Part shown: positions 2,223-43,438 of the stretch, piece after piece
How positions within the stretch are numbered: the stretch's first letter is position 1
Layout: every line of letters starts with the position of its first letter
Sequence record: MH355584.1
Direction: 5' to 3' (one strand)
Source: Escherichia phage vB_EcoM_JB75
DNA length: 64,000 bases
Made by a program: the position numbers and the translations under genes
Notes under the pieces: model-generated
Told to the model about the DNA's origin: nothing
Database searches by the model: none
Seen by the model: the letters and a program-made list of their open reading frames with translations, nothing else

Positions 2223-3847
<1,625 letters not shown>

Positions 3848-29762: not shown

Positions 29763-30447
<685 letters not shown>

Positions 30448-37882: not shown

Positions 37883-38851
<969 letters not shown>

Positions 38852-38886
38852 AGTTGTTTACTTTCTCCTAGAATTGTGATAGTATA
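38852..38886 (+). promoter_or_regulatory. T4-type early promoter
   Basis: AGTTGTTTACTTT ... TGTGATAGTATATT. Confidence 0.5.
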
Positions 38887-38939
38887 TTCACAGTTGCTTG
38901 AAGAGACAAATTACTAATTAAAATATTTAAAGGAAACAT

Positions 38940-39413
38940 ATGAAAACATATCAAGAATTTATCACTGAAGCAGCTATTAATTCTCAAATTATTGCTGAAT
39001 CTTTTACTGATCTTTTGAAATTTAAAAAAGGTCAAAAAATTACTGCTGTATTGGATGATGGTACAGAAGTTGAGATGGATGTACAGGGATATAATTATGC
39101 AGTAGATGGAAAACTGTATAATAAATCTCATGCTAAATTTGATTCATTTGACGACTTTGTTAATACAGTTGAAGATGAAAAAACTCGTCGATCCATTGCA
39201 ACTGGTGATGCTAAGGTTCTTATGGCACATGGTCATGAACGCATTCGCGCTAAACAGAATAAAATGGGTGAAGATAATTTTGCATTAGTTGGTTATCAAT
39301 CTGGTAAACAAACTTATGGCTATCAACGTACTGCTACAATGTATAATAAAAATGGTAAAATTGCCTTTGTAAATAGTAAAGGTTCTATTCAGTACGTTAA
39401 ATCGTTCAAATAA
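38940..39413 (+). CDS. internal protein (CTS MKTYQEFITEA), in the ipIII position
   Basis: 157 aa; canonical CTS with ITE cleavage site; early promoter upstream. Confidence 0.7.
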   Translation: MKTYQEFITEAAINSQIIAESFTDLLKFKKGQKITAVLDDGTEVEMDVQGYNYAVDGKLYNKSHAKFDSFDDFVNTVEDEKTRRSIATGDAKVLMAHGHERIRAKQNKMGEDNFALVGYQSGKQTYGYQRTATMYNKNGKIAFVNSKGSIQYVKSFK

Positions 39414-39566
39414 GCAAATAAGAAATATGGGAACAAACTGGACCTCATGATTCTATGAGGGATTCCCGCCAACCTGTAATAAGGTCGAGCCTGAGTGCGG
39501 TAATGGGTAAATACAGAAATGGACAATTCATGCGCCATGGAATGGCCCAAATTTAGAGAGAATAAA

Positions 39567-40106
39567 ATGAGAACATTTTTAACTGGTCCTTATCTATCCC
39601 TGATGAATGCTTTTACACACCATTCTGATGCTAGAGTAGAAGAAATTTGTAAAAACGATTATATCCCACCATTTGAAGACTTACTTAAACAGTATTGCAC
39701 ACTTCGACTAGATGGTGGACGTCAATCCGGTAAATCAATTGCTGTGACTAACTTCGCTGCTAATTGGTTGTATGATGGCGGAACAGTTATTGTTCTTTCT
39801 AATACTTCAGCTTACGCTAAAATTTCTGCAAATAACATTAAAAAGGAATTTTCGCGTTATTCTAATGATGATATACGTTTTCGTTTATTTACTGATTCTG
39901 TGCGCAGTTTTATTGGTAATAAAGGAAGCAAGTTCAGAGGTTTATCGCTTTCACGAATTTTGTATATAATTGATGAGCCTGTTAAATCTCCTGATATGGA
40001 TAAAATTTACGATATTCATATTGAAACTGTGCAACACTGCTGCAATAGTAAATGTTGCATTGGTGGTATTACTCGTCCACAGTTTTTCGTAATCGGAATG
40101 CAATGA
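39567..40106 (+). CDS. small P-loop NTPase with C-terminal Cys cluster
   Basis: Walker A GGRQSGKS, Walker B ILYIIDEP, C-terminal HCCNSKCC; start taken at ATG 39567 behind GAGAG. Confidence 0.55.
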   Translation: MRTFLTGPYLSLMNAFTHHSDARVEEICKNDYIPPFEDLLKQYCTLRLDGGRQSGKSIAVTNFAANWLYDGGTVIVLSNTSAYAKISANNIKKEFSRYSNDDIRFRLFTDSVRSFIGNKGSKFRGLSLSRILYIIDEPVKSPDMDKIYDIHIETVQHCCNSKCCIGGITRPQFFVIGMQ

Positions 40107-40432
40107 TGACAGACACTCAGCTTTTCGAATATCTTTATTTTTCGCCAAAAACTATTAAAAATAAATTGGTGAATCATTTTGAAATTTTAGCAAATAATAA
40201 CATTTTGAGCGAATTTTATCCCAAGCAATACAAATTACAAAAAGGTGTATTCAAAGGATGCAGAGTTTTGTGCACTGCTCCTAATGCAAGATTAATGAAT
40301 AAAATTCCGTATTTTACCATGGAATTTATTGATGGACCTTTTAAAGGATTAATTACGCAAAGTTTAATGGCATATGATTCTGAGCCGTTTTTAATTAAAG
40401 AACAATCTTGGATAAATTTATTTTCTAATTGA
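40103..40432 (+). CDS. hypothetical protein, translationally coupled to the P-loop NTPase
   Basis: ATGA overlap with upstream stop; 109 aa. Confidence 0.5.
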
Positions 40433-40439
40433 GGTTTAT

Positions 40440-40802
40440 ATGAAAGCATATCAAATTCTTGAAGGCACACACAAAGGCACTATTTATTTTGAAGATGGTA
40501 TTCAAGCACGAATTATCGTTTCTAAAACCTTTAAAGAGGACTCTTTTGTAGACCCAGAAATTTTCTATGGTTTGCATGCCCGTGAAATTGAAATTGAGCA
40601 ACAGCCTACAGTTAAAATTGAAGGTGGTCAACACCTGAACGTTAACGTTCTGCGTCGTGAAACTCTGGAAGATGCAGTTAAGCATCCGGAAAAATATCCG
40701 CAGCTGACCATCCGTGTATCCGGTTATGCAGTTCGCTTTAACTCTCTGACTCCGGAACAGCAGCGCGACGTTATCGCTCGTACCTTTACCGAGAGTTTGT
40801 AA
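40440..40802 (+). CDS. autonomous glycyl radical cofactor (GrcA/YfiD-like; T4 Y06I-type)
   Basis: 120 aa; C-terminal ~60 residues match E. coli YfiD/GrcA as I recall it, including the radical glycine in RVSGYAVRF. Confidence 0.85.
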
Positions 40803-41023
40803 TGGCAAAGATAATTATTGAAGGTTCTGAAGATGTGCTAAATGCTTTCGCCGAGTGGTTTAGTAATTCAGGCGAACAGCAATTTAATGAAGCCTGGAAT
40901 ATGGGTGATATTGATGGAATTTATCCTACGACAGAAATTTCTGTTCAGGGATATGGCATTCATGAACCTATTCGTTTAGTTGAATACGATTTATGCACTG
41001 GTGAGGAAGTCAAATATGATTGA
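40802..41023 (+). CDS. hypothetical protein
   Basis: 73 aa ORF, start overlaps upstream stop. Confidence 0.5.
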   Translation: MAKIIIEGSEDVLNAFAEWFSNSGEQQFNEAWNMGDIDGIYPTTEISVQGYGIHEPIRLVEYDLCTGEEVKYD

Positions 41024-41282
41024 AGATATTAAGGGTTATAAACCACATACCGACGAAAAAATCGGTAAAGTAAATGCTATTAAAGACGCTGAAGTTCGTT
41101 TAGGACTTATCTTTGATGCTTTATATGATGAATTCTGGGAAGCGTGGGACGATTGCGAAGACTTTGAACTCGCGAAGAATTATGCTGAAAGCCTCGATCA
41201 GTTAGCTATTGCTAAAACGAAACTCAAAGAAGCCAGTATGTGGGCTTGTCGTGCTGTGTTCCAACCAGAGGAAAAATACTAA
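41016..41282 (+). CDS. hypothetical protein
   Basis: ATG at 41016 overlaps upstream stop (ATGA); 88 aa. Confidence 0.5.
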
Positions 41283-41560
41283 TGGCTCAATTAAGCGCAG
41301 GGTTTGGTTATGAGTATTATACTGCCCCTCGTCGTGTGTCTGCTGCTCCTAAGAAAATTCAAAGTCTTGATGACTTCCAGGAAGTAGTCCGTAACGCTTT
41401 CCAGGACTATGCACGGTATCTTAAAGAAGATTCACAGGACTGTCTCGAAGAAGATGAAATTGCTTACTATACGCAGCGTCTTGAACAGCTCAAAAATCTA
41501 CATGAGGTTCGTGCAGAAGTTTCAAAGTCTATGAATAAATTGATTAGATTTAAAGAATAA
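41282..41560 (+). CDS. hypothetical protein
   Basis: TAATG overlap start at 41282; 92 aa. Confidence 0.5.
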
Positions 41561-41561
41561 C

Positions 41562-41594
41562 TGTTTACTTTTCCTCTTGACTGTGGTATAATTT
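41562..41594 (+). promoter_or_regulatory. T4-type early promoter (upstream of regB)
   Basis: CTGTTTACTTTT ... TGTGGTATAATTT. Confidence 0.55.
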
Positions 41595-41619
41595 TTCTAT
41601 CAGTTAAGAGGAGAACAAC

Positions 41620-42081
41620 ATGACTATCAATACAGAAGTTTTTATCCGTCGAAATAAGCTTCGTCGTCACTTTGAGTCGGAGTTTCGTCAAATTAACAAT
41701 GAGATTCGTGAGGCATCAAAAGCAGCAGGAGTCTCATCGTTTCATCTAAAATATTCTCAACATCTTCTTGATCGTGCAATTCAACGGGAGATTGATGAGA
41801 CATATGTTTTTGAATTATTCCATAAAATAAAAGACCATGTTTTAGAAGTTAATGAATTCCTGAGTATGCCTCCGCGTCCTGACATTGACGAGGATTTTAT
41901 TGATGGGGTTGAATATCGTCCTGGACGTTTAGAAATCACAGATGGAAATCTTTGGCTTGGATTTACGGTTTGTAAGCCTAATGAGAAGTTCAAAAACCCG
42001 TCACTTCAATGCAGGATGGCAATTATCAACAGTCGTCGTTTACCAGGAAAGGCTTCTAAAGCAGTAATTAAAACTCAATGA
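41620..42081 (+). CDS. regB: site-specific endoribonuclease RegB
   Basis: 153 aa; length and position match T4 regB; own promoter and SD. Confidence 0.8.
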   Translation: MTINTEVFIRRNKLRRHFESEFRQINNEIREASKAAGVSSFHLKYSQHLLDRAIQREIDETYVFELFHKIKDHVLEVNEFLSMPPRPDIDEDFIDGVEYRPGRLEITDGNLWLGFTVCKPNEKFKNPSLQCRMAIINSRRLPGKASKAVIKTQ

Positions 42082-42088
42082 GGTAAGC

Positions 42089-42634
42089 ATGAGAAAAGCA
42101 CTACTCGCTGGTCTATTGGCCATTTCAATGATGGCACATAGCTCCGAGCATACTTTCAGTAATGTCCAACTCGATAACATGCGTTACGCGTATCAATTCG
42201 GGGAACAATTTTCTAAGGATGGAAAATATAAAACACACAAAAATATCCACAAGAGCGGATTAGGTCATATAATGGCTGCTATTTTATGGCAAGAAAGCTC
42301 TGGCGGAGTTAATTTAAAATCTAAACCAAAGCATCACGCTTATGGAATGTTCCAAAATTATTTGCCTACTATGCGAGCAAGAGTTAAGGAACTTGGTTAT
42401 AATATGACCGATGCTGAAATAAAAAGAATGTTGAATAAACGATCCAATTCAGCTTCCTGGGCGTACATTGAACTTTCTTATTGGTTAAATATACATAAGG
42501 GCGATATAAGAAAAGCAATATCATCTTATAATTCGGGATGGAATGTTAAAGCAGGTTCTAAATATGCTTCTGAAGTCCTAGAAAAGGCTAATTACCTTAA
42601 AAATAATAAACTTTTGGAAATAGTAAATGACTAA
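42089..42634 (+). CDS. secreted lytic-transglycosylase-like protein (T4 vs.1 position)
   Basis: N-terminal signal peptide MRKALLAGLLAISMMAHS; SLT-type motifs LWQESSGG and YNSGWN. Confidence 0.6.
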   Translation: MRKALLAGLLAISMMAHSSEHTFSNVQLDNMRYAYQFGEQFSKDGKYKTHKNIHKSGLGHIMAAILWQESSGGVNLKSKPKHHAYGMFQNYLPTMRARVKELGYNMTDAEIKRMLNKRSNSASWAYIELSYWLNIHKGDIRKAISSYNSGWNVKAGSKYASEVLEKANYLKNNKLLEIVND

Positions 42635-42974
42635 AATTTTGGTTTTATGTATAGGATTAATTTCATTTTCTGCTTCTGCGTCAGCAGATACATCATATAC
42701 TGAAATTAGAGAATATGTAAATCGCACTGCGGCAGATTATTGTGGGAAAAATAAAGCATGCCAAGCTGAATTTGCGCAGAAATTAATATATGCATATAAA
42801 GACGGAGAAAGAGATAAATCAAGCAGATACAAAAACGATACATTATTAAAACGATATGCTAAAAAGTGGAATACCTTAGAATGTTCAGTTGCGGAGGAGA
42901 AAGATAAAGCCGCTTGTCATTCAATGGTTGACCGTTTGGTAGATTCTTATAATCGAGGATTGAGTACTAGATGA
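42627..42974 (+). CDS. vs: valyl-tRNA synthetase modifier-like protein (T4 vs position), signal peptide
   Basis: 115 aa as T4 Vs; N-terminal signal sequence and four Cys. Confidence 0.55.
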   Translation: MTKILVLCIGLISFSASASADTSYTEIREYVNRTAADYCGKNKACQAEFAQKLIYAYKDGERDKSSRYKNDTLLKRYAKKWNTLECSVAEEKDKAACHSMVDRLVDSYNRGLSTR

Positions 42975-43438
42975 TTGTAAAATATATCAAGGGCGATATT
43001 GTCGCCCTTTTCGCTGAAGGTAAAAATATTGCGCATGGATGCAATTGTTTTCATACTATGGGTTCAGGCGTAGCGGGTCAATTAACCAAAGCTTTCCCTA
43101 AAATTTTGGAAGCTGATAAATTACAGACTGAATGGGGTGATGTAACTAAACTCGGTTCTTACTCAGTCTATGAAAAATACTTTAGGACTCATAAAGCGTA
43201 TTGCTTCAACCTTTATACTCAATTTCAACCAGGGCCAAATTTTGAGTATTCCGCTTTAATGAATTGTATGTTAGAATTAAATGAGTTTGGTGAAAATAAA
43301 CTGATTAAACCTACAATCTATATGCCTAGGATTGGTGCAGGCATAGGTAAAGGGAACTGGGATATTATTGAGGGGATTTTAGATACATATTCCTCTAAAT
43401 TAGAAATTGTGATTGTTGATTGGGAACCGTTATTATGA
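42971..43438 (+). CDS. macro-domain protein
   Basis: 155 aa; macro-domain glycine-rich motifs HGCNCFHTMGSGVAGQ and IGAGIGKGNW. Confidence 0.6.
   Translation: MIVKYIKGDIVALFAEGKNIAHGCNCFHTMGSGVAGQLTKAFPKILEADKLQTEWGDVTKLGSYSVYEKYFRTHKAYCFNLYTQFQPGPNFEYSALMNCMLELNEFGENKLIKPTIYMPRIGAGIGKGNWDIIEGILDTYSSKLEIVIVDWEPLL

Follow-up and report, generated by a model that had tools for sequence, protein, structure and literature searches.

Two small proteins encoded in the vs region of phage T4 are the closest described counterparts of the locus analysed here. T4 Vs.4 (Acb2) is a hexamer that binds three cGAMP molecules with a KD of ~30 nM (Jenson et al. 2023, PMC10097602). Y8 and F82 stack on the cGAMP bases and H11, K23, S74 and R79 make polar contacts, while T12 acts as a helix cap and L29, F33, A66, A73 and A77 form the hexamer interface; mutants of this interface lose both oligomerisation and binding (PMC10097602). 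The pocket mutants Y8A and F82C of T4 Acb2 also support these residue roles (PMC12657218). Another ligand of T4 Acb2 is 2',3'-c-di-AMP; by binding it, the protein sets off Panoptes, a defence for whose triggering it is necessary and sufficient (PMC12657218). T4 Acb2 has D61 and T68; its ligands include dinucleotides but neither cA3 nor cAAG, and no cA3 binding is gained even after the D61R change (PMC10312549).

T4 Vs.3 has been identified as TadIV-1, the only protein by which T4 inhibits type IV Thoeris (Chen et al., Nat Commun 2026, PMC13243611). It sequesters N7-cADPR, the type IV Thoeris signal, without degradation and with a KD of ~216 nM (PMC13243611). TadIV-1 is a dimer of two-helix hairpins in which a disordered N-terminal loop forms the pocket (PMC13243611). 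It is active only as a long form of ~90 aa, and the T4 protein needs R17, R18 and K24 (PMC13243611). Of Vs.3 to Vs.8, each expressed alone, only Vs.3 inhibited type IV Thoeris (PMC13243611).

Layout and reality of the vs genes

We analysed a 64,000-nucleotide stretch of sequence record MH355584.1 (Escherichia phage vB_EcoM_JB75), here called the window, which comes from a T4-type myovirus of the genus Tequatrovirus. Its bases 40400-42100 match 802 phage records and are 99.4% identical to the Escherichia phages vB_EcoM_ASO78A, OE5505 and VEc20 and to Shigella phage SfPhi01. A preliminary description of this DNA had pointed to three ORFs of 73, 88 and 92 aa within 40802-41560, coupled and upstream of regB, as occupants of the T4 vs.5, vs.4 and vs.3 slots. 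Lengths and borders proved exact. The first ORF, vs.5, runs from 40802 to 41023 (ATG to TGA), the middle one, vs.4, from 41016 to 41282 (ATG to TAA) and the third, vs.3, from 41282 to 41560 (ATG to TAA), all on the + strand. They overlap by 8 nt at the vs.5/vs.4 junction (ATGATTGA) and by 1 nt at the vs.4/vs.3 junction (TAATG), and regB follows at 41620-42081 (+). Gene order and homology to T4 agree on the slot assignment.

The gene preceding them, vs.6 (40440-40802, +), encodes a GrcA-like autonomous glycyl-radical cofactor of 120 aa (Pfam Gly_radical PF01228, 2.5e-18), and its stop overlaps the vs.5 ATG by 1 nt in another TAATG. This neighbour is not a sponge; relatives and T4 carry it under the name GrcA (GrcA/YfiD-like), and it is under strong purifying selection, with a dN/dS of ~0.09-0.12. 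In Karamvirus and Klebsiella phages, vs.6 and vs.5 stand in the opposite order. A purine-rich, Shine-Dalgarno-like stretch stands 5' of each of the three starts: GAGAG for vs.5, GAGGAAG for vs.4 and AGAGGAAAA for vs.3. The order vs.6-vs.5-vs.4-vs.3-regB is the same as in T4, and vs.5-vs.4-vs.3 very probably form the distal part of a T4-type early operon, vs.8-vs.7-vs.6-vs.5-vs.4-vs.3.

The AT-rich window contains many chance ORFs of 60-127 aa, including an antisense ORF of 127 aa. Because chance frames of this length are so common, we judged the reality of the three ORFs by homology and not by length. Among 50,697 phage records, full-length homologues were found 1246 times for Vs.4, 988 times for Vs.5 and 693 times for Vs.3, as compared to 1137 times for RegB. 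The abundance of chance frames is the one point in favour of regarding the three ORFs as open by accident in AT-rich DNA, a reading to which we give next to no probability. Against it stand the full-length conservation of all three across hundreds of genomes, the crystallised close homologues of two of them, the coding signature GC1>GC2>GC3 in all three, and dN/dS values of ~0.11-0.26 for vs.5 and vs.4 against other genera, rough figures with dS near saturation. By homology, conservation, coding signature and dN/dS, the accidental origin of these frames may be regarded as already refuted.

The upstream part of the operon differs from that of T4. Between the lysozyme gene e and vs.8 (38852-39567), the window is without ipIII, ipII and denV; a single gene for a 157-aa internal virion protein (38940-39413; Ip4-like, PHROG 3155) replaces them and has its own early promoter, with GTTTAC at 38856. 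It is followed by a comparatively GC-rich spacer of 150 nt, whose hairpin (CCTCAT..ATGAGG, 39443-39460) is a terminator in the annotation of vB_EcoM_ASO78A. A sigma-70 or T4-early consensus for a vs operon promoter was absent from 39413-39567, the site of the T4 vs.8 promoter context. The vs.8 homologue has 179 aa in the window versus 216-219 aa in T4.

At the other end, a T4-type early promoter for regB (41563-41592, +; GTTTAC, 18-nt spacer, TATAAT) begins two bases 3' of the vs.3 stop and delimits the vs operon on its 3' side. It scored 10/12 with an extended TG in a promoter scan, and a T4 early promoter is annotated at the same place in vB_EcoM_ASO78A. The regB gene encodes the endoribonuclease of 153 aa (Pfam REGB_T4, 5.9e-69; PHROG 1323), and its Shine-Dalgarno sequence carries a GGAG, the RegB target, at 41610. 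The longest GGAG-free stretch of the window on the + strand (38675-41610, 2935 nt, against a background of ~2 sites per kb) extends from the end of e to this Shine-Dalgarno sequence and so covers the whole vs operon. Depletion of RegB targets across the operon was considered and rejected as not significant, since ~0.35 such gaps are expected among 129 intervals. Beyond regB, vs.1 (42089-42634, +) bears an SLT-domain transglycosylase label in Entb_43 (PHROG 600 and 335 for vs.1/tk.4), and tk.4 (42971-43438, +) is labelled as a macro-domain protein or phosphatase in the annotations of relatives.

Acb2 and TadIV-1

The preliminary description had proposed the three ORFs as positional candidates for a cyclic-dinucleotide sponge, citing T4 vs.4 as the reported Acb2 sponge for CBASS signals, and had left it open which of them, if any, was the homologue. 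Homology searches identified the middle ORF as Acb2 and the third as TadIV-1; Vs.5 resembled neither by hhalign (0.2% probability for each profile) and gave no Pfam family above threshold. The Acb2 proposal therefore stands for the middle ORF and falls for the first and third, and a complete lack of detectable homology, named beforehand as the refuting outcome, was not observed, since the middle ORF matches Acb2. The third ORF, a second and unrelated sponge directed at N7-cADPR, had not been foreseen. We are highly confident that the locus consists of two unrelated signal sponges, Acb2 and TadIV-1, and one conserved protein, Vs.5.

The middle ORF (41016-41282) is the predicted cyclic-dinucleotide sponge Acb2/Vs.4. 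Its product matched crystallised T4 Vs.4 (PDB 7UQ2) with an E value of 3.7e-52 and 82/88 identical residues (93%), both proteins having 88 aa, and it scored 73.7 bits (E 1.3e-20) on Pfam PF24729 (Acb2_Tad1_hairpin), whose gathering cut-off is 27 bits. All 13 residues with an experimentally established part in cGAMP contact, helix capping or hexamer assembly (Y8, H11, T12, K23, L29, F33, L60, A66, A73, S74, A77, R79 and F82) are retained. These include the dinucleotide-pocket residues Y8, F82, H11, K23, S74 and R79, 6/6 identical between the window protein and T4, and the hexamer-interface residues L29, F33, A66, A73 and A77, again all identical. The six substitutions relative to T4 Vs.4 (E13D, L44W, N46D, C50F, F52L and T64A) fall at none of the defined functional residues and lie mostly in the variable helix-turn region, the most divergent stretch between genera. 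From the 93% identity, we infer that the window protein would form a hexamer with three dinucleotides and relieve CBASS. This helical-hairpin hexamer is predicted to have three pockets, each between two protomers, in which 3',3'-cGAMP or a related cyclic dinucleotide would lie stacked between Y8 and F82, held by H11, K23, S74 and R79. Ligand capture would leave the CBASS effectors inactive.

PaMx33 Acb2 (PDB 8H2J/8IXZ; Huiting 2023; Cao 2023, PMC10312549) belongs to the same family and has the same fold type, with Y11 and K26 of its dinucleotide pocket corresponding to Y8 and K23 of window Acb2, but direct sequence similarity between the two is weak (E 0.13). The T64A substitution maps to the helix that lines the trinucleotide pocket of the PaMx33 protein, and position 64 of window Acb2 is Ala, as is A70 of PaMx33 Acb2. 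The Arg and Thr of the cA3 pocket (R67 and T74 in PaMx33) correspond to D61 and T68 in the window protein, which places it outside the trinucleotide subtype; PaMx33-like trinucleotide binding is a subtype trait that Acb2 membership does not require. Because window Acb2 has D61 and T68 like T4 Acb2, it is expected not to bind cA3. The Panoptes liability of T4 Acb2 is presumably shared by the window protein. A 100% identical Vs.4 protein is already in GenBank, in vB_EcoM_ASO78A, and the gene is labelled 'anti-CBASS protein 2' in phage 232Ecol030PP, a 98.9%-identical relative.

The third ORF (41282-41560) is TadIV-1 in its long form, a predicted sponge for N7-cADPR. Its product is identical to T4 Vs.3 at 91 of 92 residues (99%), the one difference being V21A, and matched UPEC07 TadIV-1 (PDB 9WIW) with an E value of 1.3e-37, with the helical-hairpin core aligned over its full length. 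R17, R18, K24, K48, E49 and H74 are all present. Active forms of TadIV-1 are defined as those of >80 aa with a flexible N-terminal extension, and short forms of ~70 aa are inactive (PMC13243611). Window Vs.3, at 92 aa, is a long form whose N-terminal 23 residues align to T4. A long form with R17, R18 and K24 argues for a second signal sponge, unrelated to Acb2; the ligand of TadIV-1 is a cyclic ADP-ribose isomer, whereas those of Acb2 are cyclic dinucleotides. On the basis of the 99% identity, window Vs.3 should act as a dimer, capturing N7-cADPR and thus blocking the caspase of type IV Thoeris. In the predicted helical-hairpin dimer, the flexible N-terminal loop with R17, R18 and K24 would trap N7-cADPR and the caspase-like effector of type IV Thoeris would be blocked. 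V21A, the difference from T4 TadIV-1, falls inside this loop implicated in ligand binding. Among the matches listed, at least three other phages carry a Vs.3 identical to the window protein. The loop of UPEC07 TadIV-1 (9WIW) is 9 residues longer than that of the window protein.

The name 'Endoribonuclease' given to 9WIW raised the question of whether Vs.3 is a nuclease. We rejected this reading, as the source paper shows TadIV-1 of phage UPEC07; the name was transferred from the annotation of the adjacent regB. Below-threshold matches of Vs.3 to parvalbumin (0.034) and Tex_N (0.0033) were discarded. In some other genera, short proteins of 71-76 aa fill the vs.3 slot, as in Mosigvirus PHB12 (2981-3196) and Karamvirus Entb_43 (3390-3620; numbering of the compared pieces). 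Such proteins would belong with the short TadIV-1 forms, which are inactive against type IV Thoeris (PMC13243611). The Entb_43 protein, with 16% identity to window Vs.3, may not be a homologue.

Vs.5, an acidic protein of the early operon

The T4 reference Vs.5 (NP_049729) is a frameshifted 58-aa product that shares only its first 17 residues with the 73-aa form, whereas resequenced T4 (MT984581.1; QPI17342) and T2 have a 73-aa Vs.5 like that of the window, which in T4 overlaps vs.4. The frame is shifted by the loss of 1 bp after codon 17, with GCTTTCG-CGAG in NC_000866.4 (5382-5558 of the compared piece) versus GCTTTCGCCGAG in the window. This deletion was found only in X04567.1, AF158101.6 and NC_000866.4, all three of which go back to the 1986 sequence. 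UniProt and RefSeq have probably inherited an old sequencing error, and the 58-aa entry may have helped Vs.5 to escape attention.

By its conservation, vs.5 is evidently a real gene under purifying selection. Its dN/dS of ~0.11-0.13 is similar to that of regB, and its homologues in 988 phage records, all restricted to Straboviridae, stay full length down to ~42% identity. Longer forms exist (114 aa in Klebsiella phage K65, 100-163 aa elsewhere); we examined them as domain fusions that might give a clue to function and rejected them, the extra parts being short uninformative tails or start-codon choices. In Tequatro-, Mosig-, Dhaka- and Winklervirus, where vs.5 and acb2 are neighbours, vs.5 extends over the acb2 start; it precedes vs.6 in Karamvirus and a Klebsiella phage, and adjoins regB in Gelderlandvirus UTK0003 with neither vs.4 nor vs.3 alongside. 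Because its genomic context varies in this way, Vs.5 is not tied obligatorily to Acb2, to TadIV-1 or to Vs.6.

The protein has 15 acidic and 3 basic (K/R) residues in 73, a net charge of -12 and a pI of 4.05. E25, E30, E61 and E69 are invariant and E7, D63 and E68 nearly so; K3 is the only nearly invariant basic residue. For the Vs.5 monomer, AF2 predicted a compact, confident fold that matched no solved structure, the sponges included. Profile searches of Vs.5 against PDB gave only hits with E>1, and no sequence or profile similarity to Acb2, Tad1, Tad2 or TadIV-1 was found. Below-threshold matches to SurE (0.0086) and UvsW_N (0.053) were discarded. An exhaustive HMMER search with Vs.5 matched an 895-aa FG-GAP/VCBS-type repeat protein at E 2.3e-12 over seven stretches. 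We judged this match to be due to chance, as the motif WF-N-G-Q-F-E recurs in seven near-identical repeats of ~9 bits each. The summed score is inflated because one short motif is counted seven times, and AF2 places the Vs.5 motif in a helix and not in a propeller blade. Literature searches on Vs.5 returned nothing relevant to its function.

What Vs.5 might do was weighed against its neighbours. If all three coupled ORFs sequestered nucleotide messengers, Vs.5 would be a third immune-signal sponge. It is small (73 aa), its operon contains two sponges, and its translation is coupled to that of acb2. Sponges described so far are short proteins that form homo-oligomers and lack recognisable domains (10.1101/2025.07.12.664507), and Acb2 too is acidic overall (net -8). 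Nevertheless, Pfam gave neither Acb2/Tad1 nor any other family above threshold (E<=0.1) for Vs.5, hhalign assigned it a probability of 0.2% against the Acb2 profile and 0.2% against the TadIV-1 profile, and its predicted fold resembles none of the solved sponges or other structures. The pockets of known sponges are positively charged (10.1101/2025.07.12.664507), and such a basic pocket is unlikely in Vs.5 because it has only 3 K/R, of which K3 alone is nearly invariant. In addition, T4 Vs.5 alone does not inhibit type IV Thoeris (PMC13243611), and in Gelderlandvirus UTK0003 the gene occurs without an adjacent vs.4 or vs.3. A nucleotide-sponge role for Vs.5 is thus unlikely, and a locus of three sponges strikes us as very improbable. 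An action together with GrcA-like Vs.6, for example in the anaerobic metabolism of the infected cell, is improbable as well. The two genes are directly adjacent in Tequatrovirus, Mosigvirus, Karamvirus and a Klebsiella phage, their order is reversed in the latter two, so that adjacency survives rearrangement, and the vs.6 stop overlaps the vs.5 start in the window. However, Dhakavirus dhabil, Winklervirus CBH8 and Gelderlandvirus UTK0003 have vs.5 without vs.6.

Vs.5 could possibly be a counter-defence or host-takeover protein that binds a basic nucleic-acid-binding protein, as an acidic decoy or DNA mimic, and we entertain this idea tentatively. It is consistent with the low pI of 4.05, the net charge of -12 and the invariant or nearly invariant acidic residues, with a compact and confidently predicted fold without relatives, with the place in an early operon next to two anti-defence genes, and with the confinement to Straboviridae. 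The case is circumstantial, however, as acidity is common among T4 early proteins, and vs.5 is about as widespread as regB (988 vs 1137 records) and less patchy than typical anti-defence genes. Our low-confidence guess would be that Vs.5 is a protein-binding or nucleic-acid-mimicking early protein and no nucleotide binder. That it represents a new kind of counter-defence or host-takeover protein, working by protein binding or mimicry and not by signal sequestration, seems doubtful at present. If this were true, vs.5-vs.4-vs.3 would be a three-gene anti-immunity cassette.

Anti-signalling genes of the window and known systems

Outside the vs operon, a 152-aa ORF at 29989-30447 (+), directly after a 57A-like tail-fibre chaperone gene, matches Acb1 (PDB 7T26, E 4.2e-62; PHROG 755). 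The window is therefore predicted to encode an anti-CBASS nuclease besides the Acb2 and TadIV-1 sponges. For annotation, the window thus has at least three published anti-signalling genes (acb2, tadIV-1 and acb1). In most close GenBank records, acb2 and tadIV-1 appear as 'hypothetical protein', or wrongly as 'endoribonuclease' or 'pyrimidine dimer DNA glycosylase'. Labels found on vs.3/TadIV-1 in relatives (e.g. OM386666.1) are 'putative pyrimidine dimer DNA glycosylase', 'endoribonuclease' and 'RegB domain-containing protein', and vs.8, vs.7 and vs.1 are also mislabelled 'endoribonuclease' in relatives.

Gene structure, homology, residue conservation and distribution were established in this analysis, and the activities are those published for the T4 proteins, to which the window proteins are 93% (Acb2) and 99% (TadIV-1) identical. 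We infer that the window proteins would behave like their T4 counterparts. The phage is predicted to be resistant to cGAMP-type CBASS and to type IV Thoeris. It is also predicted to be sensitive to Panoptes, a decoy-nucleotide system, because T4 Acb2 is its necessary and sufficient trigger (PMC12657218). These predicted resistances and this sensitivity bear on host-range prediction for therapeutic T4-like phages.

Compared with known systems, acb2 and tadIV-1 are already known: both belong to families that have been published and solved structurally, and their exact sequences are already in GenBank. The finding is an ordinary one because two of the three genes have been described before, and Vs.5 is the only exception.
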